Of a stretch of DNA of 64,000 nucleotides, positions 17,144-41,893 are shown piece by piece. A model generated the notes under the pieces. It had not been told where the DNA came from. It worked only from the letters and a program-made list of their open reading frames with translations, and did not search any database. How positions within the stretch are numbered: the stretch's first letter is position 1; each line of letters begins with the position of its first letter. The position numbers were made by a program, and so were the translations under genes. The DNA is from Nitrospirales bacterium (GTDB taxonomy: Bacteria; Nitrospirota; Nitrospiria; Nitrospirales; UBA8639), in the NCBI GenBank assembly GCA_965223295.1, contig CBDCWC010000001.1, positions 1 to 64,000 on the forward strand, in the 5' to 3' direction.

Positions 17144-17176
17144 ATTGTTCCTCCTGTGTTCCGGTTCCCCATCTTC

Positions 17177-17827: not shown

Positions 17828-17833
17828 GATGCC

Positions 17834-19711: not shown

Positions 19712-19814
19712 TAGGCCCCCTTCAGTCGGTCATTTTGAAGCATGAAAACTTGTTTCGCATACTTATAACGCATGCCATAATCCTCTTACTAGCCAAAATG
19801 TCTCGTCTTTTGTA

Positions 19815-20693: not shown

Positions 20694-20699
20694 GAGCGT

Positions 20700-21812: not shown

Positions 21813-21844
21813 GAAGGAATAGTCCTCGATTTTATGAAGGCTTG

Positions 21845-22797
21845 TTAAAGAAGTCGAATTTGATCTTTTCACGCCGGCCTTGTATTCGATATCAATAATC
21901 TTCACTTCTCCGGCGGCATCAACTTGCAGAGGCAGGACATCCAGGCCACGCGGGGCCGGGCCGTCAATGACTTTCCCTGCTTCATCATACAGACTCAGAT
22001 GACAAGGGCAGAGGAATACTCCATCCGGATTGCTCTTTGTTCTTCTCCACTTATATCCGCACCCTAGATGAGGGCACTTTCCAGAGAATCCGATATATGG
22101 TGAATTCGCTTTATTGACATGAATCACAGTCACCTTTATTATCGAAGAATCTTGCATCTTTCCCACCATACACCGCCTTTTGCACTTCAGGCGTGGCCTT
22201 TCACCACCCAGATATTCTTTTCAATCTGCTGTTCAGGCATAAAAGCTTCCTTGAAACCCCGCGTAAATTTAAACTGAAAGCCGATGTTTTCCTGTCTTAA
22301 CTTTCTTCACATTTCCCACGGAAAACCATGAATTATCAAACGGTTTAAACATGGGCTTCATCAAATATTTCAGCACAGGAAATGCCAGAGGAAGTGCAAT
22401 AAGGGTCCCGATGGCATGTGTCATATTGTTAAAAAATGTTCTGCGAGGGACACCCTGCTCTAGACAAGGGAGCGGGCACCAATATCTCACCCGGTTCAAC
22501 ATGAAGATTATCCTCAAGATGCGCAATTTCAACATCATGAATCGTGACATATTGATCACGATCAATTAATAGGAAATTGCGCTTGAACTCGTCCGGTGAG
22601 CAGCGAAGAACAATCTCTTCTTCACTCACAATCTGCTGAACTTGCCCAACAGGAATCTGTCGCTCAACACCCTGAGCTCCCCATTCCTTCACTACAACAT
22701 GACTAATTTCATGTGAAAGGGGATCAACAATGACCTTGGAAACCTTTCCAACTTCATGATCACCACATAGGGCTTTTGCCGTGAGCTTTGGTTGCAT
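21845..22797 (-). CDS. Rieske iron-sulfur protein with N-terminal PRC-barrel-like domain, split by frameshifts
   Basis: VGKVSKVIVDP..ISHVVV (PRC-like), RRTFF plus TM helix, CPHLGC and CPCHLS boxes, GPAPRGLD. Removing one A near 21868 gives the ending KDQIRLL-stop. Confidence 0.85.
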
Positions 22798-22831
22798 GCC
22801 TTACACGAATCCTCTAAATCTTCCTCATCAA

Positions 22832-23640
22832 TCAATACATTTTTATCGGTTTCGGCGTGGTCAACAGAAGCATCCTTTAGAGAGGCCAAGAATGCCACGA
22901 GAGCATCAATCTCCTCATCAAACATGAGGTCTCGGTACTTATCTGGCATTTTTCCCTTCTTGTATTGTTTATCAAATCCCTCTGCCTTCCACTTTTTGGG
23001 ATATAATATTTTTTCTTTTAAGTTGCTCAGGAGTCATGAGATTGCCAATATTGTCCATCACAGGACCTCGCTTTTTCCCACCTTGACCAAACAGTTTATG
23101 GCAGTTATAGCATTCTTGGAGCTCCCATTGTTCTTTCCCCAAGGCAACAAGGTCACCAGAAGCGGCTCCAGATGTACCAGTGTCTTCAACCACCTCCACT
23201 TTTGCCGCACCTCCGAGAGAAGCCAATTGTTTAGAAATGGACTTCGCCCGTTCGTCTAAAGCTTTTGCCCTAGCAATAAGCTCCTCGGCTTTACCTTGCT
23301 GCGATCTGGCTTTTCGCATTTTGAGAACTTTCTCAATTTTTCCAGCTTCAACACTAGGGTCGAATTGAGGAAGAATTGAGGCTCCGGCGATATACATTCC
23401 CGAAAGTAATACATAAAATACAATGAGCGCCCCAAGCGCTTTAAAGCCTTCCAAGCGCTTCATAGGAGGAGCATCAAGAAGGATAAACACAAATGCTCCC
23501 AACATAGCGTAGATGAAAAACATGATCTGAAAAACCTTGGGAAAGTGCGTCATCTGGGCCACAACAACCAAGATAACCCCAATGATAATTCCGATGACTG
23601 TTTTTTTCAGAACACTTTTCATGAAGCTTTGATTAGCCAT
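22832..23640 (-). CDS. Membrane-anchored monoheme cytochrome c, frameshifted near the 3' end
   Basis: Three TM helices, coiled coil and CYNCH. Continues in another frame as KMPDKYRDLMFDEEIDALVAFL. The end position is approximate. Confidence 0.82.
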
Positions 23641-23695
23641 ACGATTCCTTTTCTTCGAAATTCGTTCTCTCCAGCCTTACTCACCAGACAATGAG

Positions 23696-25405
23696 TTAAG
23701 AAGTCACGGTCTTTGGATTGGCCGGTTTAAGAGTGACCAGAATGGCAAAACTGACCACAGCATAGAACACGATCGTCACCCCTGTAATCCACCAAGCCGA
23801 GAACGACAATGTCGGAGTAAAGGCTTCAGAGGTGAAATCTGGAACAAGGTTGTATACATGGAAGTATTTTCTGGTGAGGGACCGAACGGTTCCCATCAAG
23901 CCCATTGTCCAAATTGCGCTAAATGCCAAGAAAATCAAGACAAATTGTGAGGCAAAATCTATTTTCCCCCAAATAATCGTTCCTTGTTTAATGGCACGGT
24001 TATACATGATGTAGTTCACGATAGTAAGAAAGACCAGCGTGAACGCCGCCGCATTTTTGGCTGGCATTAATGCCAATTCTTCGGCCCATTCTGGCAACTC
24101 AAGATCATGCGTCGCTAGGCCTTGGGTAGGAACAAACCCATGGGGAGTCATCCAAATAGCATCAGCCACCACAATCATGAGAAAACCGATTTTTATCATG
24201 GTGAAAGCAGAAACTGTGAAGTTTTTAAGTCCAGGCACCCTCCCCAGAACCATTGGAGCAATAACAATGGCTGCCAAGTATATAAGCGACTGCCACTCAG
24301 GTGGGGGAAACATTTTCCACGCCATCCCCATGACAGCCGGCATAACCAGCACAGCCAAGGCTACAAACCCAGAGATGCGAATCTGCTCCACGCCCTCAAT
24401 GCGCTTGAGACTTAACCAAATATAATAATTACTTGCGAGAAAGATGAGACCAATCATAGCCCCCTGCATTTCAAAAAACATCGACAATTGGTCAGCCATC
24501 ATGTAGGGGCAAATGGACGCATCATAGTCACAGAGTTCGTAGGCCAGGAGGTAGCCCATAAACGGCAGCAACAATAGCGCTCCCACTCCAATCATATTGC
24601 CCACAAACCCCATCCAATCATAGTACGATCGCTCTTCATCGGTTTTTGACCGCATGAACATATAGGCCGCAATTAGCCCTGCGATAAATCCTCCAAACGT
24701 CACATTCCCAACCAACCGATGAAGATTCAGCGGCATCCAACTATAGTTAGCCATTTTGTCCCACAAACCAGCATTCGTCACGAACTCCACAAGTGAGACC
24801 CCTTCTGCCGCTTTTGCGGGAGTATTCATAAACGCGGTCGGACCATCAATCACAAAAAGCGTGACCGTTCCTACAATATTCAAGAGAATCCCCAGAGCGA
24901 TATGACGCCCTTTTAAAGAACCTTTCATGGAATCCCAGGAATAGAAGTACGTATAGAGAATAATGGTCTCCATGATAAACAACACCGGATAGAAAACGGC
25001 GAATACCATGAAGAAATGCTGGATGAGCCAGGTCGAAAAGTCTGGGTAGGTACCCAGGAGCACAAAGATAAACAACCCACCGGTCAAAGCCGTCATACTG
25101 TAGAGAATGACCGTGACCTTAATGACTTCCTTGGCAAGACGGTCGTACTTTGGGTCGTTATTTTTGTACCCAAGCCACTCAGCCACCACCGCAAATATTG
25201 GAGCACCCAATATAAAGGCAGCAAATAAGATATGCAGATTGGCTACGACCCAGACTGCAGTGCGATTTCCCGTATATGGGAAATCCACCTGAGGAGCAGG
25301 AACCTCCTGTCCATACGCCAGTGCTGCCCCGCCAATGAGCAAGCCTAAAACCATCCATATACTTCGGTGTAAGGTTTTCAAGGGTCGTCCCCCTCCTTTA
25401 ATCAT
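23696..25405 (-). CDS. Cytochrome bd-like oxidase subunit (CydA-like), copy B
   Basis: ANLHILFAAFILGAP, METIILYTYFYSW, NLHRLVGN and YDWMGFVGN. Clearly paralogous to 17834..19711. Confidence 0.82.
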   Translation of the reverse strand: MIKGGGRPLKTLHRSIWMVLGLLIGGAALAYGQEVPAPQVDFPYTGNRTAVWVVANLHILFAAFILGAPIFAVVAEWLGYKNNDPKYDRLAKEVIKVTVILYSMTALTGGLFIFVLLGTYPDFSTWLIQHFFMVFAVFYPVLFIMETIILYTYFYSWDSMKGSLKGRHIALGILLNIVGTVTLFVIDGPTAFMNTPAKAAEGVSLVEFVTNAGLWDKMANYSWMPLNLHRLVGNVTFGGFIAGLIAAYMFMRSKTDEERSYYDWMGFVGNMIGVGALLLLPFMGYLLAYELCDYDASICPYMMADQLSMFFEMQGAMIGLIFLASNYYIWLSLKRIEGVEQIRISGFVALAVLVMPAVMGMAWKMFPPPEWQSLIYLAAIVIAPMVLGRVPGLKNFTVSAFTMIKIGFLMIVVADAIWMTPHGFVPTQGLATHDLELPEWAEELALMPAKNAAAFTLVFLTIVNYIMYNRAIKQGTIIWGKIDFASQFVLIFLAFSAIWTMGLMGTVRSLTRKYFHVYNLVPDFTSEAFTPTLSFSAWWITGVTIVFYAVVSFAILVTLKPANPKTVTS

Positions 25406-25438
25406 TCTTTCCGTCCTGGAGACAGCGCTTATGCGTGA

Positions 25439-25984
25439 TTAATGAGCCGCATCATCCGCAGGTGCATCCCCTGCTGGTGCAGCGGCTGGAGCAGAACCAG
25501 CTGTTCCCTGAGGAACCCATTTTTTCGCGGCCACATCATATTCCTTACCTTTGAGCCCAAAGGTCGCTTCGTAGGCAATCACTTTCCAGATTTCCTCTTC
25601 TGAAAGCTTGCTCTTCCAGGCTTTCATTTTCGTGCCTTTGACACCTTCACTAACTCGCCAAAACCATACTGCATCTGAATAGAGCTCCATTTGCTCAGTT
25701 CGTCGGAAGTCTCTGGCACCCGCCTTCACAGGCTTCCCATTTTTTCCATGGCAACTGGCGCAATTCACATCAATATTTTGCTGTCCGGTAAAAATGGCTT
25801 TCCCCTCCTCTAGGATTTCAGGATTATTCCAATAGCCATCCGGCATATGCTTGTCAGCATATTCAGGCGGAGCAGGCGGCGGGGGCTTCGGTGGGCCTTC
25901 TCCTCCACCACAAGCAGAAAATGACATCCCCATGACCGCTAACCCCATCACAAACAAGCTTCGAAGATTTCGGTATTCGTTCAT
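25439..25984 (-). CDS. Monoheme cytochrome c lipoprotein
   Basis: Lipobox FSAC, Pro-rich linker, CASCH, FWRVSEG..TKMKAW. RBS GAGGGGG. Confidence 0.9.
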   Translation of the reverse strand: MNEYRNLRSLFVMGLAVMGMSFSACGGGEGPPKPPPPAPPEYADKHMPDGYWNNPEILEEGKAIFTGQQNIDVNCASCHGKNGKPVKAGARDFRRTEQMELYSDAVWFWRVSEGVKGTKMKAWKSKLSEEEIWKVIAYEATFGLKGKEYDVAAKKWVPQGTAGSAPAAAPAGDAPADDAAH

Positions 25985-26929: not shown

Positions 26930-27946
26930 CTACACCGCATTAGGAAAGAGAGTGGCCTTCATCGTTCCCAAAAATCCACTCCAGGAACCGAAGGTGTCTT
27001 TAACCGCCGACGCTTCATAGCCACAATGCACCATACAATCTCGGCATTGCTCATGCCGCCCTGTCCCATAGCGTTCCCAGTCCGTCTCTTCCATGAGTTC
27101 TCGAAACGTCGACACGTATCCCTCTTGCAATAAATAACAAGGACGCTGCCAGCCAAAGATATTGTAGGTGGGATTTCCCCATGGCGTACATTCATAATCC
27201 CGCTTCCCCATGAGAAATTCTAGAAAGAGAGGCGACTGATTAAATTGCCACGTTCGCTTACGTTGCGTCAGCAATTGGGAAAACAACGACCGCGTCCGAT
27301 CCCGTTTCAGAAAACTTTGCTGGTCAGGAGCTTTATCGTAACTGTACCCAGGCGAAATCATCATGCCTTCAACGCCCAACTCCATCATTTCATCAAAGAA
27401 CTGGCGAACACGCCCCGGCTCGGCATCATCAAACAGCGTCGTATTAGTCGTCACCCGAAAACCTTTGGCAAGTGCAACGCGAATCGCTTTCACCGCCACA
27501 TCATAGACGCCATCCCGACAGACAGCATGGTCATGCTCTTCTTTCAGTCCATCCATGTGAATACTGAATGTCAGGTATTTTGAGGGTGTATAGTCTTGGA
27601 TTTTTCGTTCTAAAAGAATGGCGTTCGTACACAAATAGACATATTTTTTTTGCTCCACGAGTCCCTCGACAATAGCTGGCATTTCGGGATGAATGAGTGG
27701 CTCCCCTCCTGGAATACTCACGATTGGCGCTCCACATTCATCAGCCGCTGTCCAACATTGCTCAGGCGTTAGGCGTCTGTTCAGAATATGATCCGGATAT
27801 TGGATTTTCCCGCATCCTGCACATTCCAAATTGCACCGAAACAACGGCTCGAGCATCAGCACTAATGGATACCGCGGGACACCTCGAAGATGCTTCGAGA
27901 ACGCGTACTGCGACACCGTATACATCTGTGAAATAGGAACACCCAT
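26930..27946 (-). CDS. hpnH: Adenosylhopane synthase radical SAM protein
   Basis: YPLVLMLEPLFRCNLECAGCGKI, SIPGGEPLIH, LCTNA, CTPWGNPT, PCYLL, CRDCMVHCGYE. Confidence 0.95.
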   Translation of the reverse strand: MGVPISQMYTVSQYAFSKHLRGVPRYPLVLMLEPLFRCNLECAGCGKIQYPDHILNRRLTPEQCWTAADECGAPIVSIPGGEPLIHPEMPAIVEGLVEQKKYVYLCTNAILLERKIQDYTPSKYLTFSIHMDGLKEEHDHAVCRDGVYDVAVKAIRVALAKGFRVTTNTTLFDDAEPGRVRQFFDEMMELGVEGMMISPGYSYDKAPDQQSFLKRDRTRSLFSQLLTQRKRTWQFNQSPLFLEFLMGKRDYECTPWGNPTYNIFGWQRPCYLLQEGYVSTFRELMEETDWERYGTGRHEQCRDCMVHCGYEASAVKDTFGSWSGFLGTMKATLFPNAV

Positions 27947-28187: not shown

Positions 28188-29372
28188 TTACCTGAGAGGT
28201 AAAACTGGAATGTCTCGTGAGGAATGCCTAGTGGAGGCTAAAGACAGATCCTCGATTGGAAGAACGTCAGGATCTGCCATAGACACCGAATTATTTGAAT
28301 TGTCAGACCCTTGCTCTTTTGCCATGGCTTCGACTTCTTCAATCAACGTATCCATTAATTCTTCTGAAGGTACACGTTTATAGAGTTTGCCCTTTTTGAA
28401 GACAATTCCAACCCCTTGGCCACCCGCTATACCAATATCAGCTTCCTTTCCTTCGCCGATACCATTGACGACACAGCCGAGAACGGACACCGTGATGGGG
28501 GTTTTAATATGCCCAAGTCGATGCTCTAATTCATTCGCCATTTTCACCACATCAATTTCGACGCGGCCACATGTAGGACACGCAATAACGTTGACTCCTC
28601 GATGCCTCAGTTCAAGCGACTTTAAGATTTCAAACCCCACTTTGACTTCTTCTACCGGGTCGGCTGCCAAAGAGACGCGTAAGGTGTCACCAATGCCCTG
28701 AGACAGGAGCCAGCCCAACCCCATGGCTGACTTAACGGCACCAGTCGTCGCTGTACCTGCTTCGGTAATACCGATATGCAAGGGATAGTTGGATTGCTGC
28801 GCGAATAACCAATAGGCGTCGATGGCCATGTGAACATCTGACGCCTTCAATGACACTTTCATATTGGTGAAGCCCACATCTTCCAAAGCATGGACGGCAT
28901 TCAGCGCAGATTCGGCCAACGCTTCGGCTGTCGGGTACCCATATTTGTCTAGGAGCGTTTTTTCTAGTGAACCTCCATTCACGCCAACTCTAAGAGGAAT
29001 GCCGTAATCATTGACGGCTTTAATCACCTCTTCAGTTTTCCACCAGGGGCCGACATTTCCCGGATTGATGCGAACACAATCGACGACTTCTGCTGCCTTT
29101 AATGCCAAACGATGATCAAAATGAATATCCGCAATAAGGGGCACCGTCATCTGGGCCTTAATTTTAGGAAGAGCCTGAGCAGCCTCCATGTCGGGAACAG
29201 CCACTCGTATGAGTTCACACCCCGCCTCTTCTAAGCGACGAATTTGTTCTAGGGTCCCTGGAATATCACTGGGATGAGGGATGGTCATGGACTGCACCGA
29301 AATCGGCGCATCGCCACCAATCTTGACCGGTCCCACCTGAATTTGACGGGTCTTTCGTCTAACAATATGCAT
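28188..29372 (-). CDS. ispG: (E)-4-hydroxy-3-methylbut-2-enyl-diphosphate synthase
   Basis: PISVQSMT, ADIHF, RINPGN, RVGVNGGSL, HIGITEAG, GIGDTLRVSL, CPTCGR, GCVVNG. Confidence 0.97.
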   Translation of the reverse strand: MHIVRRKTRQIQVGPVKIGGDAPISVQSMTIPHPSDIPGTLEQIRRLEEAGCELIRVAVPDMEAAQALPKIKAQMTVPLIADIHFDHRLALKAAEVVDCVRINPGNVGPWWKTEEVIKAVNDYGIPLRVGVNGGSLEKTLLDKYGYPTAEALAESALNAVHALEDVGFTNMKVSLKASDVHMAIDAYWLFAQQSNYPLHIGITEAGTATTGAVKSAMGLGWLLSQGIGDTLRVSLAADPVEEVKVGFEILKSLELRHRGVNVIACPTCGRVEIDVVKMANELEHRLGHIKTPITVSVLGCVVNGIGEGKEADIGIAGGQGVGIVFKKGKLYKRVPSEELMDTLIEEVEAMAKEQGSDNSNNSVSMADPDVLPIEDLSLASTRHSSRDIPVLPLR

Positions 29373-29378
29373 GTGAGG

Positions 29379-31277
29379 CTATGAGCGTAAAATGGTTTTC
29401 AGAGAGACTCGTTCAACGAGAGCTTTCGCTTGATCGTGAATGCCATCGGCCGTTAACCCATATTTTTCGCGAAGCAATTCTTGTGGACCTTGTTCAATAT
29501 ACCAATCCGGCAATCCGAGCACCTTCGTCGGCAAATCCCATCGTTCTTCCTCGGATAGAAACTCTAACACTGCCGAACCGAATCCTCCCATTCGACAGCC
29601 TTCTTCCACGGTGATGAGACATTTGACATTTTTCGTCACATCACGAATAAGGTCTTTATCCAAAGGTTTCACAAATCTCGCGTTAATGACCGCCGCAGAG
29701 ATTCCATTATCTTTCAGTTGTTCAGCCGCCTTGATGGCTTCCGACACCATCACGCCTATGGCCACAATGGCGACATCGGTTCCTTCAGCTAAGAGTTCCC
29801 CTTGCCCTATTTCCAGAGGAATTGGCTCGGGATCCAATGGCACTCCTAAGCTACTTCCACGAGGATAGCGCACCGCAACAGGCCCATCATGAACCAGCCC
29901 AGTTTGGACCATGTGCTGGACTTCATTTTCATCCTTGGGGGCCATCACAATCATATTGGGGACATGGCGAAGATACGCAAAATCAAAAGCCCCATGATGC
30001 GTCGTCCCGTCTTCAGCAACTAATCCACCTCGATCGATACAGAATGTCACAGGAAGATTCTGTGTAGCGACATCATGCACCACTTGATCATAAGCACGTT
30101 GTAAAAACGTAGAATACATACAAATGACCGGCCGCATCTGCTCTGCAGCCAACCCTGCAGCATAGGTCACGGCATGTTGTTCTGCAATTCCCACATCAAT
30201 CAACCGATCGGGGAATTCTTTCTGGAAACTCGACAGACCTGTGCCTTCACACATCGCGGCCGTGATCGCCACCACACGCTTATCTTTACGTGCCTGCCGT
30301 CTCAAGGTATCCGCGACAATTGCACTATAGGTTGGAGGCCCAGACTTCTTTACTGGCTGTCCCGTTTTAGAATCAAACGGCGAGCAGGCATGGAACCAGA
30401 CAGGATTGCTCATGGCCGGTTCAAAACCGAGTCCCTTTTTTGTAATGACATGCAAAAGCGTTGGCCCTTTGAGCTTCAGAACATTATCTAAGGTCGGCAA
30501 CAGATGCTCAAAATTATGGCCATCGATTGGGCCCACATAGCGAAAGCCCAACTCTTCGAATAAGAGGCCGGGAAGCAGGAATCCTTTGGCTAACTCTTCT
30601 GCTCGCATGGCAATCCGCTTCACGTTTTCACCGATTTGCGGAATGGTATCTAACAATTGTGAGGTTTCTTCACGAAATCTCGTGTAGAACTCCCCGGTAA
30701 ATGTGCGGTTTAAATATGCTGAGATTGCCCCGACGTTTTGAGAAATGGACATCTGATTATCATTCAAAATCACCACAATGTCCTTGCCCATATCCCCTGC
30801 ATGCTGGAGACCCTCTAATGTCATGCCGGACGTGAGCGCACCATCCCCTACCACACAGACAATTTTATTAGAACGGCCTAGCTTCTCACGGGCTTCCACA
30901 AAACCAACCGCAGCAGAAACTCCTGTGCCCGCATGTCCAGCATTAAAGGTGTCATACATGCTTTCTTCACGCTTACAGAACCCGCTCATGCCACCGAATT
31001 GGCGGATGGTGTGAAATTTTTCTCGTCGCCCCGTCAACAATTTATGCGCATAGGCTTGATTGCTGGTATCCCAAACGATTTTGTCCTTTGGCGTGTTCAG
31101 CAAATATTGTAAAGCCACAGTTAACTCCACCACACCAAGATTAGAAGCGAGATGGCCGCCAACCTTAGAGATAACTTCTATGATCAGTTCTCGAATTTCC
31201 TGGCAGAGTTCAGGAAATTGTTCGGGAGAGAGTTTCTTTAAATCTGTAGGACTTTCAATCCTTTTTAACAAGGACAT
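29379..31277 (-). CDS. dxs: 1-deoxy-D-xylulose-5-phosphate synthase
   Basis: GGHLASNLGVVELT, HKLLTGR, GDGALTSG, LNDNQMSI, YVGPIDGH, DVGIAEQHA, FLQRAYDQ. Confidence 0.97.
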   Translation of the reverse strand: MSLLKRIESPTDLKKLSPEQFPELCQEIRELIIEVISKVGGHLASNLGVVELTVALQYLLNTPKDKIVWDTSNQAYAHKLLTGRREKFHTIRQFGGMSGFCKREESMYDTFNAGHAGTGVSAAVGFVEAREKLGRSNKIVCVVGDGALTSGMTLEGLQHAGDMGKDIVVILNDNQMSISQNVGAISAYLNRTFTGEFYTRFREETSQLLDTIPQIGENVKRIAMRAEELAKGFLLPGLLFEELGFRYVGPIDGHNFEHLLPTLDNVLKLKGPTLLHVITKKGLGFEPAMSNPVWFHACSPFDSKTGQPVKKSGPPTYSAIVADTLRRQARKDKRVVAITAAMCEGTGLSSFQKEFPDRLIDVGIAEQHAVTYAAGLAAEQMRPVICMYSTFLQRAYDQVVHDVATQNLPVTFCIDRGGLVAEDGTTHHGAFDFAYLRHVPNMIVMAPKDENEVQHMVQTGLVHDGPVAVRYPRGSSLGVPLDPEPIPLEIGQGELLAEGTDVAIVAIGVMVSEAIKAAEQLKDNGISAAVINARFVKPLDKDLIRDVTKNVKCLITVEEGCRMGGFGSAVLEFLSEEERWDLPTKVLGLPDWYIEQGPQELLREKYGLTADGIHDQAKALVERVSLKTILRS

Positions 31278-31494: not shown

Positions 31495-33132
31495 TTACTG
31501 AACAATAATGATGCTGTATGACAAGCTAAGATCCCGCCCGCGGGCTGAATAAGCTGAGGCCTGCACATCACGAGTGAGACATTCCCGCCCGAAGGTTATC
31601 AAATGGTGAGCCACCATCGCGATTTGAAACACTGACTCGACATTACCCTCTTTTAACTCCCGCCGGGTCATGGTCCAAAATTCTTTTCGATAATCGCTAC
31701 AAATGCCCACCCGCCAAGCCGTACGTGCAAAAATTTCGACCGCTCGACGCAGATTCGCCCACGTCAACTGATCCAAGGGACGCGTCGGTCGCTTCCGGTG
31801 CAAATACGTTCTTTCGGCTTGCGCCGCATAGCGCGCGTAAATATTTCGTGGTTCGTACGCCTCACGGATGACACGCTTCCAATTCGCAACCACCTCATCG
31901 TAAGGTTGCAAATACTCGACGTTCGAATCACGCCCTTCTCCAGAATTCAGGCGATTGGCTTTTTGCAGCCGTTCGTAGAGTGGGGTATGCGGCAAAGCAA
32001 CTAGCAAGTTCGGTGTCACGATGGGAATCTGAGAAACCTTAATAAATTCGATAATCGCGTCAGTGGTCTCAGGCGTGTCCGTATCCAACCCAATGATAAT
32101 GCCCGCGGCGATTTCGATTCCGTAGCTATTCACCGTGTCCACGGCTTCAAGCATCGGCGTGCGAACGTTTTGCCTTTTACTCATAGCACGCAACGCATCC
32201 GGGTCCACAGTCTCGATGCCAATAAAGATATTGGTCATAAAGGCCTCACGCATGAGCTCTAGAATATCGGGATATTCCACCACATTGAACGTGAGTTCAC
32301 AGGAGAGGCGAACTGTATAATCCCGGCGCTTCTGCCATTCCACGAGATAGGGCAACAGTTCCCGCGCCGCTCGGGGGTTGGCAATAAAATTGTCATCTAC
32401 GAAATAAATCGAGGGTGTCCCACCGTCAGCAAGTTCATCCAATTCGGCCAAGATTTGCTCCGGCGTCTTGAGTCTTGGATTTCTCCCATAGAGCGCAGGG
32501 ATATCACAAAATTCGCAGGTAAAGGGACAGCCGCTGGAATACTGCACACAGCCGAGCAGGTACTGACGAACGTCTATGAGACGATAGGCCGGGGTCGGGA
32601 AATCTGTCATAGGAAGCCGATCAACCGTCCGAAAGACTATTTGTTGCTCGGGACGCGCTGGAGTCTCGTCAATCCGGCGGAACAAGTCCAGTGTCGCATC
32701 ACCCACTTCTCCACAATGCAAGAAATCGATGTCTTCATATTGTTCAGGTGCCGCCGAAACTGAGGGACCACCTAACACTGTCATCTTGCCTGCCGCATGT
32801 GCACGCTGGGCAATATCATGGATTTGATGGCGTTGGATGTGCATGCCCGATATCAGGACAGCATCAGCCCACGCCAATTCACTGTCACTTGTCGGACGAA
32901 TGTTCTCATCAATAAACTGGACTTCCCATTCTTGGGGCACCAACGCTGCAATGAGAAGAATTCCTTGTGGCGGCATAAAGGCCTTCACCGGCCCCATAAG
33001 AGGAAAGGCATGGTCAAACGTACCAAAGGCTTTGGTATAGGCCGGAAACACACAGAGTATGCGCCGAACATTTAACGGCCGAAACGTTCGAACCGTTGCT
33101 GTCGGTGTTAAGAGCGAACTAGATGAGGACAA
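31495..33132 (-). CDS. hpnP: Hopanoid C-2 methyltransferase (cobalamin-dependent radical SAM)
   Basis: RILCVFPAYTKAFGTF, AFMPPQG, ISGMHIQR, GGPSVS, GEVGDAT, QYSSGCPFTCEFCDIPALYGRNPRLKTPEQI, YFVDDNF and VAHHLI match alphaproteobacterial/cyanobacterial HpnP as recalled. Lies inside a hopanoid cluster. Confidence 0.85.
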   Translation of the reverse strand: MSSSSSLLTPTATVRTFRPLNVRRILCVFPAYTKAFGTFDHAFPLMGPVKAFMPPQGILLIAALVPQEWEVQFIDENIRPTSDSELAWADAVLISGMHIQRHQIHDIAQRAHAAGKMTVLGGPSVSAAPEQYEDIDFLHCGEVGDATLDLFRRIDETPARPEQQIVFRTVDRLPMTDFPTPAYRLIDVRQYLLGCVQYSSGCPFTCEFCDIPALYGRNPRLKTPEQILAELDELADGGTPSIYFVDDNFIANPRAARELLPYLVEWQKRRDYTVRLSCELTFNVVEYPDILELMREAFMTNIFIGIETVDPDALRAMSKRQNVRTPMLEAVDTVNSYGIEIAAGIIIGLDTDTPETTDAIIEFIKVSQIPIVTPNLLVALPHTPLYERLQKANRLNSGEGRDSNVEYLQPYDEVVANWKRVIREAYEPRNIYARYAAQAERTYLHRKRPTRPLDQLTWANLRRAVEIFARTAWRVGICSDYRKEFWTMTRRELKEGNVESVFQIAMVAHHLITFGRECLTRDVQASAYSARGRDLSLSYSIIIVQ

Positions 33133-33247: not shown

Positions 33248-35908
33248 TTAGGTTGCCGCATCTGGCGCTTTCGTCTGGCCACGATAGAGAAATGCAGGCA
33301 AGACCACTAAACACCCAATCAATGTCAATAAAATCCCTAGGCTCAACAATTGCCCCATACTCGCAATGCCCACATGCGAGGTATATGCGAGGTTACTGAA
33401 ACTCAACATTGTGGTCACACTACTGAAAAACACACCCCGGATGGTTCCGGACCGCAGAAACATTTCACAAGCTTCCGGCCTTCTGCGCATTCGCTCAACA
33501 ATATGGATACCGCTATCAGCCCCAAGCCCAAAAATTAATGGAAGCGCAATCACATTGGCATAGTTGAAGGGCATGTCAAAAATAACCGTATACCCTACCA
33601 GACAGAGTGCGGCCAGACTCAAAGGAAGAATCACTAATAGAATATCCCAAATGTTTCTAAGAACAAGCGCTAAGATCAGGACAATCACCAGAAGCGCGGA
33701 AACAAATGCTTGCTGAAATGCTCCGGCTACTTCATTGCCCCCATCTAAATAGATAGCAGGCAGCCCCGTGACCTGTGGAGCCATGCGACGAACATCGCTC
33801 ACAAACTCTTCCAAGGCTTCAACATTCCTCAAGTCCTTTTTAGGATAGACTTCCAAACGGTACGTTTCATTGGGACCCACCCAACGTTCAACTAGTTCTT
33901 GCGGCAAGTCTTTCTGAGTGATGAGCCCCATCGGCATCGCAATCGCTTGCTCAGATGTTTGGTCATTCGGAAAAGACCCCAACAAACTGTGGTCTAAACG
34001 ATCAAGCAGATTCTTCTGTACTTCTTTATCACTAGTGTTCAACTTCTCAACAAAATTTTTCAGTACATCTCTAAGATGGCCTGCAGAATGCTCAGAACCC
34101 AACCCTGTTTTCTGAATATAATCTTCTAGGGTCCTCAAAAAGGATTGGATTGCAGCCAGAGAGGCATCAGTGTCTGGAGAACCAGAGACTTTGGAATCCG
34201 ATCCTTGAGCAAGCATGCTATCCGCGAGCCCTGCAAGCAGCACAAACTTTTCAAATTGATCCGAGGGAGTAAAATCATTGATTGTCACAACCTTATCGAC
34301 TGACTCCAACGATCCAAGCCTTGAAACAGAATCATCAATCTCATCTTCAGAAGGCAAAAGAGTTAGGGACCAGGTTGCACCATTTCTGTCTTCCAGGAGA
34401 TCATCCATGGTTTGAACCGATTCCACGTTGGGGTCCCGTATATTGTGGGGATTCCAATCAAACAAAGCTTGAGGAAGTAACACGACAGATAAGAAAAAGA
34501 CCACAACCGTTCCCCACCGAATTTCCCGCCCGTGACGGATGGGAAATTGATAGACAGGCTCCAAACCCTCGCGAGAAGAAGGTGAACGAAAATCTTTTTT
34601 CGATAAGGGAAAGACCAATAAGATCGCTGGCAAGACCGTCAGTGACACGACCAAGCCAATGAACATACTCGTTCCTGATATCAATCCTAATTCCGACATA
34701 CCGGTGTAATTTGTTGGGACGAAGGTGTAGAAACCAAGTCCAGTGGTCACCGCGCACAACAGTAAGGCAGGACCAATTTCTTGCAGACTCTTTCTCATGG
34801 CCAAAAATGGCTCGTTCCCCAAGCTCAGGAGTTCCTGATAACGAAGACTCAGATGGATGGCATAGTCGACCGCCAGTCCAATAAAGAGCACGGCAAACGC
34901 TAAAGATAAGATATTGAGTTGGCCAACCACCGCTGTCGCAAACCCTGCACTTAATGCCAGTCCTACAAGTAACGTCAACAAGGTGATGATCATAAATCGC
35001 CATGAATGAAACGTCAGCGTCAGCGTGAGACAGACCATGATCAGCGACAGAATGGCGGCAATCCCTGCACGCTGGCTCACAACTTGGAGCTCTTCATGTG
35101 CTAGTGCCACTTCTCCAGTCAACCGGACCTGAACTCCAGAAATACCTGACACACCCGACTCTTGAATGACATCACGAATAACTTGAAGAGCAGTCTCGGC
35201 TGGCAGCATCTTTTGATAATCCAAATGAGGTTGCAACAAAATGAACCGCCGTGTCTGTGACGTTTGAAGATCTGGTTTCAGTAGGACGGAATGCCAGGCT
35301 AATACATAGTCCAAGCCAATCAGACTCGACTGAATGCCTTCTATCATTCTTCGAAAAAGTGCAGACAGAAGGGGTTCCTGCTCCCACTCCGATCGATCAT
35401 AGTGATTCGTTAACAGAGTAAACAGGCCATGGATATTCCGATTCCGCATCAACTCTTCAAAAAAGGGTCTTAACGTTGCCACTGATTCCGACAACCGTTC
35501 AAGTTCAGAAACCTCCAGATAGAACAGAGCATTTTTCTCGAAAAACGAACCTCCAAATGGCGCATACACTGACTTAATGTGTTCGGGTTTATTTCTTAAT
35601 CTGCCATCAAGCATTTTGACAGCGGCATGCGCCATCTCCGGAGTGCGAGCCTCGACAACCAAAACAATAGAGTCCGTGTTCTGAGGAAAAATCTTTTTAT
35701 AATGCTCTCGGGCTTCTTGGATCGGGACGTCAGCGGCCAGCATTTCAGTCGTATTCGTATTGATTCCCAGATACATAAATGCATAGAAAAAGGAAATCAC
35801 TGTTGCAAAGATTGCCAACGTCAGAACCCACCAGGTTCTCTGCTTCACAAAGTCAGCCACTCGACCAAGAACATGTGACAACCAATCAGGTGAAAGGGAC
35901 ATGGCCAT
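33248..35908 (-). CDS. hpnN: Hopanoid-associated MMPL/RND transporter
   Basis: Two RND halves, LTGEVALAHEEL, LNILSLAFAVLFIGLAVDYAIH, NYANVIALPLIFGLGADSGIH, GIASMGQLL. Confidence 0.9.
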   Translation of the reverse strand: MAMSLSPDWLSHVLGRVADFVKQRTWWVLTLAIFATVISFFYAFMYLGINTNTTEMLAADVPIQEAREHYKKIFPQNTDSIVLVVEARTPEMAHAAVKMLDGRLRNKPEHIKSVYAPFGGSFFEKNALFYLEVSELERLSESVATLRPFFEELMRNRNIHGLFTLLTNHYDRSEWEQEPLLSALFRRMIEGIQSSLIGLDYVLAWHSVLLKPDLQTSQTRRFILLQPHLDYQKMLPAETALQVIRDVIQESGVSGISGVQVRLTGEVALAHEELQVVSQRAGIAAILSLIMVCLTLTLTFHSWRFMIITLLTLLVGLALSAGFATAVVGQLNILSLAFAVLFIGLAVDYAIHLSLRYQELLSLGNEPFLAMRKSLQEIGPALLLCAVTTGLGFYTFVPTNYTGMSELGLISGTSMFIGLVVSLTVLPAILLVFPLSKKDFRSPSSREGLEPVYQFPIRHGREIRWGTVVVFFLSVVLLPQALFDWNPHNIRDPNVESVQTMDDLLEDRNGATWSLTLLPSEDEIDDSVSRLGSLESVDKVVTINDFTPSDQFEKFVLLAGLADSMLAQGSDSKVSGSPDTDASLAAIQSFLRTLEDYIQKTGLGSEHSAGHLRDVLKNFVEKLNTSDKEVQKNLLDRLDHSLLGSFPNDQTSEQAIAMPMGLITQKDLPQELVERWVGPNETYRLEVYPKKDLRNVEALEEFVSDVRRMAPQVTGLPAIYLDGGNEVAGAFQQAFVSALLVIVLILALVLRNIWDILLVILPLSLAALCLVGYTVIFDMPFNYANVIALPLIFGLGADSGIHIVERMRRRPEACEMFLRSGTIRGVFFSSVTTMLSFSNLAYTSHVGIASMGQLLSLGILLTLIGCLVVLPAFLYRGQTKAPDAAT

Positions 35909-36149: not shown

Positions 36150-36923
36150 TTATGGCTCATGGAAGTCAGAAACAGGGATCTGTTGCAATAGCATTTCCGC
36201 TTCGGGTACATGAATGCGCTTCCAAATCCATTGTTTCTTTCGGGGAGGTATATGAAGAACCTGCATGAATTCTTTTCTTGCCTCCAGAGTTTGACCATGT
36301 TTTAAATACCACTTACCAAGATCCAAGTGGGCAGGAGCATACCGCGCATCAAGAGAAATAGTTTTTTTGAGATACTCGCGTGCCTTCTCTGAGTCTCCCC
36401 CTAAAAACCAGGGCAGCCTCTCATACATCACCCCTAACATATAATTCCCCAACACATGATTTTCATCAATTTCCAAGACTCGATTCGCATGATACTGTAA
36501 TGTCCCTAAGGCACGTATTGCGGCGACCCAGCCTTCCAATTGAGCGGCCTTACCAAAATTGGCTGCAAACAGAAAATGTCCCGTCGCCGAAGATTCATCC
36601 AACTCCAGAGCTTTTTTGGCCAATCGAGCTCCCTCTTGAAGAGAGGCTATTTGTTTCTCCCGATCAACATACAACCCGTAGCCGACATCCAAATACAGAT
36701 GAGCCAAATGCCGTAACTCTTCGGGGTCATTGGATTTCGCTTTACCTTGAGATACGAGCTGCTGGAGCTCTTGGACCACACCCTCTGCCGTATCTGGCTC
36801 TGTTAGTTCTCCTGCAACACTCCAAAAAGGCCATCCGAAGATGGGAACAACAAAAACACAAAATAGAGCAAAAACCACTTTTTCCATGACAATCAAACAC
36901 CCGACAATATCATCAAGCTTCAA
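36150..36923 (-). CDS. Exported TPR protein resembling TatT/TPAT T-components
   Basis: Signal-like N-terminus, helical repeats and LGVMYERLPWFLGGDSEKAREYLKK. ATG overlaps the Omp85 stop. Confidence 0.65.
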   Translation of the reverse strand: MKLDDIVGCLIVMEKVVFALFCVFVVPIFGWPFWSVAGELTEPDTAEGVVQELQQLVSQGKAKSNDPEELRHLAHLYLDVGYGLYVDREKQIASLQEGARLAKKALELDESSATGHFLFAANFGKAAQLEGWVAAIRALGTLQYHANRVLEIDENHVLGNYMLGVMYERLPWFLGGDSEKAREYLKKTISLDARYAPAHLDLGKWYLKHGQTLEARKEFMQVLHIPPRKKQWIWKRIHVPEAEMLLQQIPVSDFHEP

Positions 36924-38131
36924 AAGGGATAATCCAATCCAGCAAAGATAGCCCCGCCTTCCCGGCTATATCCCCAATCAACGCGGCTGACTAAGTTAGG
37001 CCGCACAATTCCACGGAATCCCACCCCCGGCGTGACCTCCCATTCGTTAAATTGCCGGAAAGAAAAGTCTTGATAGGTACGACCCATATCGACAAAGGGA
37101 GTGAGCTCAAACTCCACATTGACATTCAATATCTTCACCTGTAAGAGATGAATACGCTCCTCAACATTGAACACAACCATGTGTTTATCAATGAACCGAT
37201 CCTGACCATAACCTCGTAGGTTATTTTCTCCTCCCAACGAACTTTGCTCAAAAAAAGGAATGCCATCTCCAAAACTTAGTTGCAATCGCCCTCGAACCAA
37301 AAAAATATACCGCTTCGACGGACTAGGGAAAAACCGTCTTGCATCCACGCCATAACGAAAATAGAATTGGTCATCAATGATCTCTCGTCGGTCAAAATTC
37401 TGTGCCAACTCTCCAAACGCTTCAATCCGCGTTCCTGCCGTAGGGGCAATAAGGTTATCCCGAGAATCATATTGAAAAACTAAGCGATGGGCCAATATCG
37501 TCGCACCATCGATTCCAGGTGTATTGGAAAACTCCTCTTGGGAAAACGGTTCATCATCAACACCTCCAGGCTGAATTTGCACATCACGAAATCGTTGATT
37601 CACCGACAGCCGGGTCACATCATTGAGATGAATCCCGAAATTCCAATGGACCAAAATTTCACGGCCGGTATAATTAGATTCATCGGACTCCGGGGTAATT
37701 TGGCCTAAGCCAAAAAAACGTCTTGTGGCATTTTTAAAAAATTGCGCTCCAATATCTACGAAAAACAAACCCTCGATAAACCCTGGGTCTTGATAGCGTA
37801 ACTTAAATTTACGTTCAATCTCTTCCGTATACGAACCCACCGCTTTTAACCGCTTTCCACCTGACCAATATTGAAAATAATTTAATGTCCCCCTGAGTCC
37901 CAAAAATGAGTTATGAATAAGCATGGGCGCCAAGACTGAGCGGAGATTGCCTTCCTCATCTGAATCCAACACAGGCACAATGATCCCAAAGTCTCTCCCG
38001 TCGTTTTTGGAAGTGGAAATCGCTGGAACGACAAAAAATGATTTTTCAGCGGAGGCGATGGAGGGAATGATACTTCCCGCTAACGCCAGGCAGACCACCG
38101 CCGCCCAGCACGAGGCACGGAAAAGCACCAT
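36920..38131 (-). CDS. Omp85 (BamA/TamA-family) outer-membrane beta-barrel without obvious POTRA domains
   Basis: Signal peptide ending ASA, YDSRDN..PTAG, LGGENNLRGY..DRF (VRGY-like motif), PGVGFR, RVDWGY and terminal YPF. Confidence 0.85.
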   Translation of the reverse strand: MVLFRASCWAAVVCLALAGSIIPSIASAEKSFFVVPAISTSKNDGRDFGIIVPVLDSDEEGNLRSVLAPMLIHNSFLGLRGTLNYFQYWSGGKRLKAVGSYTEEIERKFKLRYQDPGFIEGLFFVDIGAQFFKNATRRFFGLGQITPESDESNYTGREILVHWNFGIHLNDVTRLSVNQRFRDVQIQPGGVDDEPFSQEEFSNTPGIDGATILAHRLVFQYDSRDNLIAPTAGTRIEAFGELAQNFDRREIIDDQFYFRYGVDARRFFPSPSKRYIFLVRGRLQLSFGDGIPFFEQSSLGGENNLRGYGQDRFIDKHMVVFNVEERIHLLQVKILNVNVEFELTPFVDMGRTYQDFSFRQFNEWEVTPGVGFRGIVRPNLVSRVDWGYSREGGAIFAGLDYPF

Positions 38132-38143
38132 CAAACGAGTTCC

Positions 38144-38830
38144 CTACGAAGAAGCGGCAAGGTCAGACTTCGAACGAAGCTTGTCGAGTAACCCTTCGAA
38201 TGAAGAAGATTTGATAATTCTGGAAAATTGTCCTCGATAATTTTTTGTCAAACTGACGCCGTCAATAATCACATCATAGACTCCCCATTTCTCATTTTTC
38301 TTGAGAAGGCGATAATCTAGCGGGATTTGAACTTTCGACGAAACAACTTTTGTCTGCACTTCAGCAAACTTGCCTTTCAACCGTTCCTTCAGATATTCCA
38401 CTTGCTCTCCAGAATACCCATCGATATTCCCAGCATAGGATTGGGATAAAAATTGCTGAAATAGGCCCACAAATTCTTGCTGTGTTTCAGTGCTTAATTT
38501 TTTCCATTTAGCCGCAAGAGTGCGTTTGGCCATTTCTTCATAATCAAATCGCTGCCCAATGATTGCCTCCAATTTCTCTCGACGCTCGACCTCTCGCCCT
38601 GGGACTTTCAAGTCTTCATCTCCAAGAACAGACAAAACCTGGTCGATCGTCTCTTTCACGGCTTCCGTTGGACCACTCGCGGCCCACGCCAAAGGCAAAC
38701 AAAGGCAGAAGATAACTACGCAAGCTAAAGCGACTATATACGGACGTCTATACGCCGCTTCCCTCATTTGCCCTAATTGATCCCTAACCCCTTGCATTGT
38801 TCTGACCGTAATAGCTCCTAATACTACCAT
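38144..38830 (-). CDS. mlaC: MlaC/HpnM-family periplasmic lipid-binding protein
   Basis: FDYEEMAKRTL..W, EFVGLF, LDYRL..WGVYDVIIDGVSLTKNYRGQF. The true start may be further downstream. Confidence 0.9.
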   Translation of the reverse strand: MVVLGAITVRTMQGVRDQLGQMREAAYRRPYIVALACVVIFCLCLPLAWAASGPTEAVKETIDQVLSVLGDEDLKVPGREVERREKLEAIIGQRFDYEEMAKRTLAAKWKKLSTETQQEFVGLFQQFLSQSYAGNIDGYSGEQVEYLKERLKGKFAEVQTKVVSSKVQIPLDYRLLKKNEKWGVYDVIIDGVSLTKNYRGQFSRIIKSSSFEGLLDKLRSKSDLAASS

Positions 38831-38854
38831 ACCCCCTCCAACGATTAAGACACC

Positions 38855-39298
38855 TTATTCAACATTACCATGGATAAATTGGCTAATGACTTGTTCCAAA
38901 TCTATCCCAGATTCGGTGTCCATAATGGTTCCTCCTTTAGATAAGGGCTCCCCAGCTCCTCCTGGAGAAAGACCCATAAACTTTTCCCCAATAATGCCAC
39001 GCGTCTTAATGGAGGCAATCGCATCATTATACACCGTAATCCCATCTTCAATCGCTAAGACGACCTGAGCTTGATCTTCTTTTAAAACAATAGACTTCAC
39101 ACGACCAACTTCCACGCCCGCAATTTCAACAGACGCGCCTTTTTTCAAGCCAGAACTCGAAGAAAAATCAGCCGTGAGCTCATAATAATCTCCACCGACC
39201 AACTCCAATTTGCCCAATTTGATCGCCAGATATCCAAGGCAAAGAATTCCCACAAGCACAAATAGCCCGACGACGAACTCTAATTTGCCACGTTCCAT
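38855..39298 (-). CDS. mlaD: MlaD MCE-domain protein
   Basis: EFVVGLFVL, GLKKGASVEIAGVEVGRV, ASIKTRGIIGEKF, TESGIDLEQ. Confidence 0.94.
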   Translation of the reverse strand: MERGKLEFVVGLFVLVGILCLGYLAIKLGKLELVGGDYYELTADFSSSSGLKKGASVEIAGVEVGRVKSIVLKEDQAQVVLAIEDGITVYNDAIASIKTRGIIGEKFMGLSPGGAGEPLSKGGTIMDTESGIDLEQVISQFIHGNVE

Positions 39299-39395
39299 GA
39301 TAGCAGTTCCTGGAAAGAGAATTGGTTTGTCATTGGCCTCCATGACATGAAAGAAGCATCAAGGACCTCTCATGTTATCATACAAGGCTTTCAAC

Positions 39396-40160
39396 TTATC
39401 GCGTGGGCACAGCATTCGGAATTGAAATAAATTCACGGACCAAAGGATCTGACAATCGTTGAAATTCGGCTGAGCGCTCCATTGCAAGGATTTTACCATT
39501 CTTCAGCATGGCGACCCAATCAGAAATGGGAAAGATTTTAGGAATTTCATGACTGACCATAATCCCCGTGAACTCAAAAGTGTTATGCATGGCTAAAATC
39601 AAATCATGAATAGCATGGGCCATTAGCGGATCTAACCCCGTGGTCGGCTCATCAAACAAAATGATTTCTGGACCCATCACTAACGCCCTGGCCAAGCCGG
39701 CACGCTTTTTCATCCCGCCACTCAGCTCAGCAGGAAACTTGTGGCCCATTTCCCCCAATCCCACCCGTTCTAACATCTCCGGCACAGCCTGCTGTACTTC
39801 AGATTCCGAAACCAATCGTTTCTCTCGCAAAGGAAAGGCAACATTATCAAACACATTCATCGAATCAAACAGGGCAGCGGACTGAAATAACATGGCAAAT
39901 TTCTTTCGAATTTCATTCAATTCTTGATCATGAATTTTGGTCAAATCCACCCCATCCACCAACACGTGCCCATGGTCGGGACGCATCAGCCCAATCATGT
40001 GTTTTAACAACACGCTTTTTCCTTCTCCACTTGGGCCAATGATAGTGGTAATCTCTCCCTTGGGAATGCCTAAATCCACACCCTGCAGAACAGGTTGGCC
40101 CCCAAGCGTTTTGTCAACATCCTTCAACTGAATAATACGCGACGAATCCATATCAATCAT
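39396..40160 (-). CDS. mlaF: MlaF ABC ATPase
   Basis: GPSGEGKS, FQSAALFDSM, ELSGGMKKRAGLARAL, FDEPTTGLDP. Confidence 0.94.
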   Translation of the reverse strand: MIDMDSSRIIQLKDVDKTLGGQPVLQGVDLGIPKGEITTIIGPSGEGKSVLLKHMIGLMRPDHGHVLVDGVDLTKIHDQELNEIRKKFAMLFQSAALFDSMNVFDNVAFPLREKRLVSESEVQQAVPEMLERVGLGEMGHKFPAELSGGMKKRAGLARALVMGPEIILFDEPTTGLDPLMAHAIHDLILAMHNTFEFTGIMVSHEIPKIFPISDWVAMLKNGKILAMERSAEFQRLSDPLVREFISIPNAVPTR

Positions 40161-40163
40161 GTT

Positions 40164-40338
40164 GGGGCTGTTGAAAAAAGCCCCCGCCTACTCCGCCGAA
40201 GTAACTCGATAGGCTACGAAGGCCAGGAATGGCTGCGGCCTCGCTGGATGCACTTTTTTGAACCGCCCCGAAGCTGTTGGTATCCGACGTGATCATGACC
40301 AAATTTGCCTCTGGTGTTTTGTATTATTCAACACTCCC
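40164..40338 (+). mobile_element. MITE-like element, copy 2
   Basis: Ends GGGGCTGTTGAAAAA and TTATTCAACACTCCC. Perfect 5-bp flanking duplication ATGTT (40159..40163 and 40339..40343). The right half is nearly identical to copy 3. Confidence 0.85.
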
Positions 40339-40348
40339 ATGTTGGTTC

Positions 40349-41116
40349 TTACAGGAGAACTGAAGTTAAAAAATAATCCCAGACTAAAATGAGGACCGAG
40401 GCCAGAACGACAGACTCTGTCGTGGCTTTTCCCAGTCCTTCAGCACTCATTCTCGTATAGTAGCCTTTATAACAACAGACCCAACTGATAATCAGGCCGA
40501 AACTAATTGACTTTAATATTCCCCCATAGACATCTTTCCATACCACAGCCGATTCAATCGAACTCCAATATGCCCCTCCGCCCACTCCCAACAACTTCAC
40601 GCCCACAACATAACCCCCGCCAATTCCCACAACATCAAACAGGGCCACAAGAAGCGGAACAGAAATCAGTGCCGCCACTATTTTCGGTGTAATGAGATAT
40701 TGAAGAGAATTGACGGCCATGGTTTCTAATGCGTCAATTTGCTCCGTAATTCGCATGATACCAATTTCTGCGGTCATGGCCGATCCAGCCCGAGCTGTAA
40801 CCATCAGCGAGGCCAGCACTGGGCCCAATTCGCGGATCATACTCAACGCCACAGCCGACCCTAATAGTCCCTCGGATCCAAATTTTCTCAAGGAATAGTA
40901 CCCTTGTAGCGCTAACACCATTCCGGTAAACAGAGCCGTCAAAATAACCACAAATGTTGACTTAAAGCCTATAAAATGAATTTGCTTAACGATTTGATGC
41001 AATCGCAACGGCGGCCGCAATAGCCACCCAAAGGCTCGCAACAGAAACAGCAACATGGCTCCCATTTCTTCAATCCGAGCGATGACTCGGGCTCCTAGTG
41101 CTTGAATCATGTTCAT
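40349..41116 (-). CDS. mlaE: MlaE ABC permease
   Basis: FTGMVLALQ, RELGPVL, RAGSAMTAEIGIMRITEQIDALETM, GKATTESVV. Confidence 0.95.
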   Translation of the reverse strand: MNMIQALGARVIARIEEMGAMLLFLLRAFGWLLRPPLRLHQIVKQIHFIGFKSTFVVILTALFTGMVLALQGYYSLRKFGSEGLLGSAVALSMIRELGPVLASLMVTARAGSAMTAEIGIMRITEQIDALETMAVNSLQYLITPKIVAALISVPLLVALFDVVGIGGGYVVGVKLLGVGGGAYWSSIESAVVWKDVYGGILKSISFGLIISWVCCYKGYYTRMSAEGLGKATTESVVLASVLILVWDYFLTSVLL

Positions 41117-41119: not shown

Positions 41120-41893
41120 CTATGACCTGTTCAGTAAAGAAGCTGAAGATTCTGGCATAGTCGAAACCGTAGAGAAAAAGGCTTCAAAAAATATCGTGAG
41201 CTGTCGGGAGGCTTGCTTCGAATGCCGGTACACATTCAAGAAGCCTTTCCATGACTTCGGTGTCGATAAGATGCGCGCCACTCCCGCGACCCAGCCTGAT
41301 GGCGCCAGAAAGAGATTAAAGTCTACCGGCAAATCATCATTGACGCCATCTGAAATGGCCCGCACAATCAAAAATGGCAAGTCATGACCTTGAGCTATTT
41401 GCCCAATGGCCGCACTTTCCATATCAACCGCCACCGCCCCCGACCGAATTCCTACTGAATATTTCTCTGCTGAATGAATGAGCACACGATCCACACATGT
41501 AAATTTTCCAGTTCGTAGAACCCCGTGCCCATGCCAAGGAATGGTCAAGGCCGTTTTGACCCAATCAGAATGGCACATGATTGGTTGCGACGGAAGGGAG
41601 TGAGGGGAAGAAGAGGTCTCAAAAACTTCTTGCCCAATTACTAGAGAGCCGATAGGGGCAGTGTCATCGACGCCGCCAGCAAAGCCTGCAGAGATTAAGA
41701 CATCCCATGATTGAGCATCAACTAGCTGCTGGGTACTTATGCGGGCTTTAACAGGTCCTATGCCTGACTGAATCACTAGAACATTGAGCCCTTGCCCATG
41801 ATAGGTAATGGCACGAGGCCCATTGTGGGAAACGGAGTGAGTAGCTGGAAGAGCGCGGACAACGGCATGAAATTCTATTCTGGTTGCCGTCAC
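41120..41893 (-). CDS. hpnG: Purine nucleoside phosphorylase-family protein, HpnG-like
   Basis: SGIGP, SAGFAGG, AVDMESAA, VRAISD. Immediately downstream of shc. The true start is slightly uncertain. Confidence 0.75.
   Translation of the reverse strand: MTATRIEFHAVVRALPATHSVSHNGPRAITYHGQGLNVLVIQSGIGPVKARISTQQLVDAQSWDVLISAGFAGGVDDTAPIGSLVIGQEVFETSSSPHSLPSQPIMCHSDWVKTALTIPWHGHGVLRTGKFTCVDRVLIHSAEKYSVGIRSGAVAVDMESAAIGQIAQGHDLPFLIVRAISDGVNDDLPVDFNLFLAPSGWVAGVARILSTPKSWKGFLNVYRHSKQASRQLTIFFEAFFSTVSTMPESSASLLNRS

Follow-up and report, generated by a model that had tools for sequence, protein, structure and literature searches.

The window, a 64,000-nucleotide stretch of DNA from a Nitrospirales bacterium, carries an intact hpnP gene (31495–33132, minus strand). 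As judged from sequence, its product belongs to the HpnP clade of B12-binding radical SAM methyltransferases, and the gene quite probably encodes a true hopanoid C-2 methyltransferase. We base this reading on the domain architecture, an intact CxxxCxxC motif, the HpnP motifs, the position in the HpnP clade and the hopanoid cluster of the host, which includes shc and hpnH. The open reading frame starts with TTG and translates into 545 residues with zero internal stops. Pfam assigns B12-binding to residues 46–146, Radical_SAM to 198–364 and DUF4070 to 383–520, and the radical SAM cysteines are Cys202, Cys206 and Cys209. The protein contains the strings FMPPQG, SGMHIQR, GDAT, CPFTCEFC and LYGRNPRLKTPEQI, so the reading frame and the Pfam domains confirm the original prediction of an intact B12-binding radical SAM gene with HpnP-type strings. 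All seven tested HpnP motifs are found in the window protein and in HpnP from Bradyrhizobium diazoefficiens, Methylobacterium and Acidobacteriaceae, and six of the seven in Chlorogloeopsis; HpnP-like proteins hold two of the seven each. An NCBIfam profile search of the window protein returned no HpnP model, and a PDB sequence search found no solved HpnP structure (best matches, E ~1e-8); a fold alone would in any case not reveal which position is methylated.

To place the protein, we compared identities, profile scores and trees. The window HpnP is 53.7% identical to HpnP of B. diazoefficiens (the blr2995 orthologue of another strain, L143) and 52.7% to that of Chlorogloeopsis fritschii, and these two are 57.5% identical to each other. 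Identity is 52–57% to the named alphaproteobacterial, cyanobacterial and acidobacterial loci, well above the <34% of non-HpnP proteins. A working threshold of ~55% refers to R. palustris HpnP (PMC12583986), whereas the 53–54% of the window protein, slightly lower, is measured against other validated-type HpnPs. Four HpnP-like plasmid proteins reach 34–36% and HpnR ~26%. The HpnR model TIGR04367 (cut-off 650) gives 62 bits, and the HpnJ model TIGR03471 (cut-off 577.6) gives 45.7 bits. Trees were calculated with FastTree on 96 rows and with IQ-TREE (LG+G4) on 57 of those rows, the latter leaving out HpnR, long-branch representatives and near-duplicates; the search for representatives gave mostly fragments and HpnP-like proteins, which served only as outgroups in the 96-row tree. 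In the IQ-TREE result, the HpnP group stands apart from the four HpnP-like outgroup rows with support of 100/100. The Nitrospirales HpnPs form one clade (96/39 to 99/94) within an early-diverging, mainly Planctomycetota/Verrucomicrobiota (PVC-associated) branch (94/99). The branch of Alphaproteobacteria, Cyanobacteria and Acidobacteria (99/96) is sister to it, and Nitrospirales HpnP is not nested inside. Nesting in this validated branch is not a membership criterion in the available text of Hoshino et al. (2023; PMC10697835), and a place outside it limits the functional certainty for Nitrospirales HpnP. Trees, identity gap and motifs bear out the predicted HpnP type, with the HpnR and HpnJ models far below their cut-offs. 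In the 96-row tree, HpnP of locus L100, whose record is titled Bordetella parapertussis (MAG), groups tightly with Bradyrhizobium; this record is likely a mislabelled or contaminated bin.

It is very unlikely that the window gene encodes a generic HpnP-like B12 radical SAM protein without a link to hopanoids. B12-binding, Radical_SAM and DUF4070 are domains of both HpnP and HpnP-like proteins, according to the part of PMC10697835 that describes them. The database names of the matches are mostly generic, and 12 of 20 orthologue loci examined in other genomes, all outside the subclade that carries the insert described below, lie in unrelated, variable surroundings without shc, hpnH, hpnN or dxs nearby. 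Against this stand the identity gap (at least 52% versus at most 36%, with one intermediate, G178, at 45%), the motif split, the tree position and the adjacency of hpnN.

The minus-strand order in the window is shc, HpnG-like, mlaE/F/D/C-like, Omp85, TPR, hpnN, hpnP, dxs, ispG and hpnH, and profile matches confirm the predicted position of hpnP between hpnN and dxs in a cluster with shc and hpnH. The squalene–hopene cyclase gene shc (41966–44134) has a DVDD motif and scores 764 bits with TIGR01507. The HpnG-like phosphorylase/nucleosidase gene (41120–41893) scores 115 bits with TIGR03468, below the cut-off of 187. Profile matches identify lipid transport genes of the MlaC/HpnM-like, MlaD, MlaF-like and MlaE types (38144–41116) and, below cut-off, an Omp85-family outer membrane protein (36920–38134). 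The gene for a TPR-repeat protein (36150–36923; Pfam) and dxs (29379–31277; profile match) are, from the loci of relatives, core genes that flank an optional insert upstream and downstream. Within this insert, hpnP adjoins hpnN (33248–35908), a hopanoid RND-type transporter gene with 853 bits to TIGR03480 (cut-off 752). Beyond dxs lie ispG of the MEP pathway (28188–29372; profile match) and the adenosyl-hopene transferase gene hpnH (26930–27946; TIGR03470, 544 bits, cut-off 225). The spacers flanking hpnP are an ordinary 115 and 217 bp, and a scan for promoters and terminators gave counts at chance level (8 versus 6.9 and 5 versus 4.9). No RNA data set is listed among the sequencing runs that hold the gene, which does not bear on its expression. 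The Omp85, MlaC/HpnM-like, MlaD, MlaF-like and MlaE genes (36920–41116, minus strand) are kept between shc and dxs genus-wide and possibly form an HpnN-independent hopanoid transport route. Elsewhere in the window, the minus-strand region 14495–25984 holds two cytochrome bd-like subunit I genes, a Rieske/cytochrome b fusion, c-type cytochromes and a DMSO-reductase-type heme b subunit, and resembles a region with a bd-like oxidase known from Nitrospirales. A dispersed, MITE/REP-like intergenic repeat of ~85–190 bp occurs at 3985–4157, 40154–40345 and 63198–63394, with well over 100 genome matches at 73–94% identity.

Regarding the host, the cluster-mates of the window HpnH carry the names Nitrospirales or Nitrospirota, as do the six named loci closest to the window HpnP; named loci lie at 81–89% identity. 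The assembly has two NxrA-type genes, 97–98% identical to the protein of a relative, for which the score with the solved NxrA 7B04 is 1574 bits. The predicted Nitrospirales host is thus borne out by HpnH, the named loci and the NxrA-type genes. RpoB places the host's genus in a family separate from the order's largest family (inter-family mean identity 78.6%). Since marine lineage IV belongs to a GTDB family other than that of lineages I/II, as reported in PMC10579370, the host probably belongs to the lineage-IV type. Contig C1 (64,829 bp), of which the window makes up almost all, runs collinear with 1.631–1.715 Mb (1631138–1715373) of the main contig C3; over 63.4 kb, the mean identity is 91.7%. 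C3 holds ~18 kb extra at the position matching 12.7 kb in the window. From this comparison, C1 most likely represents a co-binned sister population or species of the main contig.

A recent horizontal acquisition of hpnP, or a chimeric or contaminant contig, can be given hardly any weight. The GC content of hpnP, 51.6%, falls at the 94th percentile of 1355 genome ORFs (48.1 ± 2.6%; GC3, 95th percentile), and the assembly holds the window contig (64.8 kb) as a redundant sister copy. However, the main contig carries hpnP with 96% amino-acid identity in unchanged gene order, and public sequencing-run contigs from two studies bridge both the dxs–hpnP and the hpnP–hpnN junction at roughly 85–92% identity. 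Because the C3 copy is collinear and these contigs span both junctions, the arrangement is not chimeric. In addition, hpnP has typical codon usage (46th percentile among genome ORFs) and lies directly upstream of dxs in 12 other genomes. The impression by eye of a GC-richer gene is mildly true, but it does not stand as a signal of acquisition given the codon usage. The horizontal acquisition suggested from GC and the spacers is, as a recent event, ruled out by the typical codon usage and the orthologues that 12 relatives have at this site.

To analyze the site itself, we compared loci across the genus. Eight of the 20 orthologue loci have hpnN–hpnP–dxs in a hopanoid cluster; by coordinates, hpnP is also beside dxs in G230, G244 and G188, and an hpnP fragment adjoins dxs in G214. 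We also compared another 20 dxs loci from the genus; in 16, the TPR gene stands directly beside dxs and the site is empty. The other four show shc2–hpnN without hpnP (G110), hpnN with a remnant of shc2 (G236), the hpnP fragment (G214) and omp85 beside dxs (G152). The full shc2–hpnN–hpnP arrangement is found in G148 and G202, where shc2 passes TIGR01507. This second cyclase gene is the first gene of the insert in G148, G202 and G110 (L044:6992–8995, L046:11035–12834 and L214:5149–7149) and is 43% identical to core Shc and 47–49% to Bradyrhizobium-type Shc. A remnant of shc2 was looked for in the TPR–hpnN spacer of the window and not found. The transporter gene hpnN is itself patchy, with a match in 18 of 50 genomes of the genus. 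Because full, partial, remnant and empty sites occur among relatives, the unit amounts to an optional insert of three genes, (shc2)–hpnN–hpnP, between TPR and dxs that decays piecemeal, and the window has lost shc2. In a 58-row RpoB tree, which we read as having no root of its own and with the other family as outgroup, only one subclade of 19 genomes carries the insert, with cluster-type hpnP in 12 of 19 and hpnR in none, whereas the sister subclade has cluster-type hpnP in 0/19 and hpnR in 11/19. Since the genomes are kin, this split is one event and not a statistical association.

We regard it as rather unlikely that the product of the window gene, though a hopanoid methylase of the HpnP clade, differs in outcome: methylation at another position (e.g. 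as an HpnR stand-in), preference for the product of shc2, or effective silence. Confirmed C-2 methylation is limited to Alphaproteobacteria, Cyanobacteria and Acidobacteria, and early-diverging HpnP homologues are described as 'not experimentally confirmed' and possibly divergent in function, both in the portion of PMC10697835 that treats function; some hpnP-positive species have no detectable 2-methyl product in the account of PMC12583986. The Nitrospirales sub-branch is without a validated member, a point missed by the original prediction, and this favours a different outcome. So do the opposed distributions of hpnP and hpnR in the two subclades, the second shc in the insert of G148, G202 and G110, and the divergence of HpnP, ~3.5 times faster than that of RpoB within the insert-bearing group. 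However, the hpnP/hpnR complementarity is a single subclade split among kin, and hpnP and hpnR occur together in G194, G234, G214, G177, G274, G354 and G363, which fits two positions of methylation. Six of these genomes (G194, G234, G177, G274, G354 and G363) are, from gene content, candidate makers of 2,3-dimethyl hopanoids. A preference for the shc2 product is further opposed by the window genome, which has lost shc2 with hpnP still intact, and by shc2 itself, which scores above the ordinary cut-off for a hopene cyclase and retains its DxDD motif.

C-2 methylation is the outcome that we prefer. The squalene–hopene cyclase gene shc is present in the host and in 5/5 tested hpnP-bearing genomes of the other family, and the suggested 2-methylhopanoid production is supported, as a potential, by the clade and by the hopanoid cluster with shc and hpnH. 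In class-B radical SAM enzymes, the [4Fe-4S] cluster cleaves SAM to give a 5'-deoxyadenosyl radical. By such chemistry, the radical would take a hydrogen from C-2 of ring A, methylcobalamin would supply the methyl group, and a second SAM would re-methylate the cobalamin. The expected products would be 2-methyl-diploptene and 2-methyl-BHPs, which the adjacent HpnN may export.

The methylase activity would depend on a scavenged cobamide. Among ring-synthesis markers in the window's genome, CbiC/CobH was not found and CbiF/CobM was found only below cut-off; both are present in one of five genomes tested (G045). The genome does have a cluster with a BtuB-like receptor and BtuCDF-like ABC genes (all below cut-off), a cob(I)yrinate adenosyltransferase and CobQ. 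Thus, the host appears from its genes to salvage B12 and not to make it. This gene content agrees with PMC10579370, in which marine Nitrospirales are reported to be B12 auxotrophs, and a passage of PMC12583986 citing Elling 2020 describes Nitrobacter methylation as dependent on external cobamide. The proposed cobalamin dependence is supported by this combination of missing ring-synthesis markers and present uptake and salvage genes.

Outside the order, the closest relatives of insert hpnP are Planctomycetota/Verrucomicrobiota proteins, and an older horizontal origin with movement between Nitrospirales families is likely. First, HpnP of G194, G234 and G208, which belong to the host's genus, is 92–93% identical to that of the other family, while RpoB is only 79% identical. 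Because a single clade for all HpnPs of the genus is rejected (p-AU 0.0008, for a grouping that is taxonomic but was chosen after the first tree), hpnP has crossed between families. Second, the HpnP/RpoB distance ratio for the insert type is 0.82 between families; inside the insert group it is 3.55, and inside the other family 1.14. Finally, the best tree nests insert-type HpnP among sequences of the other family (99/98), which favours an old inter-family transfer of insert-type hpnP; a tree that keeps the other family's sequences monophyletic, as expected under descent from a common ancestor, is not rejected (p-AU 0.096). The insert would have been acquired long ago by an ancestor within the host's genus and then lost piecemeal.

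The hpnP survey called for by the original prediction covered a sample of 401 Nitrospirales genomes at E<=1e-60. Fifty matched: 29 with close orthologues (identity ~80% or higher, including two fragments), two with divergent proteins (55% and 45%) and 19 with HpnP-like proteins (32–39%). Close orthologues occur in 19 of 50 genomes of the host's genus, and the other large family has them in 10 of 260. In a phylum-wide sample at E<=1e-120, 9/401 genomes matched, with none among the 285 outside the two families. The divergent HpnP-related Nitrospirales proteins, at 45–46% and 55%, are L037 (G178:C13:57166–58725), G194:C3:10842–12395 and L036 (G221). The common hopanoid methylase gene of the order is hpnR, found in 168/401 genomes and in 81/102 of the largest genus; it was not found in the window's genome. 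PMC10579370 reports hpnR for N. marina and relatives, and the accessible supplement to that paper names hpnR only, with 0 matches to hpnP. Our literature search found no paper on hpnP distribution in Nitrospirales or on the insert; Elling 2020/2022, Lawrence 2026 and bioRxiv supplements lay outside its scope and may cover them. The 29/401 distribution, the optional insert with empty sites, the near-complementarity with hpnR and the inter-family transfer were not found in the literature searched.

2-Methylhopanes are contested as a biomarker; at issue is who carries a functional HpnP and how long this has been so. In the current argument, phyla beyond Cyanobacteria, Alphaproteobacteria and Rokubacteria are set aside as sporadic. 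The finding that hpnP is common in one genus and lies in a core hopanoid cluster is good circumstantial support that the early-diverging branch acts on hopanoids, and the window gene is a sensible candidate for the benchmark experiment urged in passages of PMC10697835 and PMC12324291. We consider it quite unlikely that the two main Nitrospirales families owe an active C-2 methylase to their common ancestor, which would make nitrite oxidisers an old source of 2-methylhopanoids. If so, aerobic, B12-scavenging marine or sediment nitrite oxidisers of the lineage-IV type would be a non-cyanobacterial, non-alphaproteobacterial source, the 'cyanobacterial before 750 Ma' reading would be weaker, and the 2-methylhopane spikes of anoxic events would have a second possible nitrifier source.

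Among known systems, the nearest are MBA3964629.1, 87% identical (430/493) to the window HpnP, and TSA00055.1. They are the Nitrospirae entries in the HpnP trees (135 sequences) of the PMC10697835 supplements, where they adjoin Planctomycetes MBI3268233.1 and Verrucomicrobia; R. palustris TIE-1 HpnP is also in the tree. Both fall in the same clade as the window protein, and MBA3964629.1 nests among sequences of the host's genus. The novelty in this lineage claimed by the original prediction, which was to fall if hpnP had already been reported there, does not survive these two entries. The window hpnP is a new example in a lineage already known to carry the gene, and the gain is incremental, with hpnR far commoner in the order. 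In PMC10697835, as far as its accessible parts go, the Nitrospirae rows appear only in supplementary trees and alignments and such phyla are treated as sporadic, whereas hpnP is present here in 19/50 genomes of one genus. The same parts report no SC–HpnP synteny, whereas the window hpnP lies inside a shc–hpnH cluster. A claim that hpnP–shc synteny is new is ruled out by Bradyrhizobium (blr2995 versus blr3004); a cyclase match lies within ~10 kb of hpnP in 39/80 named loci, mostly Bradyrhizobium. Deletion of blr2995 in B. diazoefficiens abolishes 2-methyl hopanoids, as described in the relevant section of PMC4620461. HpnP of B. diazoefficiens and of R. palustris TIE-1 shares the same three domains and motifs with the window protein but belongs to the sister branch, and the window gene differs in its hpnN neighbour and in having a predicted activity. 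HpnR (TIGR04367), the C-3 methylase, is also a B12 radical SAM methylase of hopanoid ring A, at the low identity given above. Lastly, the uncharacterised HpnP-like B12/radical SAM/DUF4070 proteins have the same architecture as the window HpnP but lack five of the seven motifs and form a separate clade.
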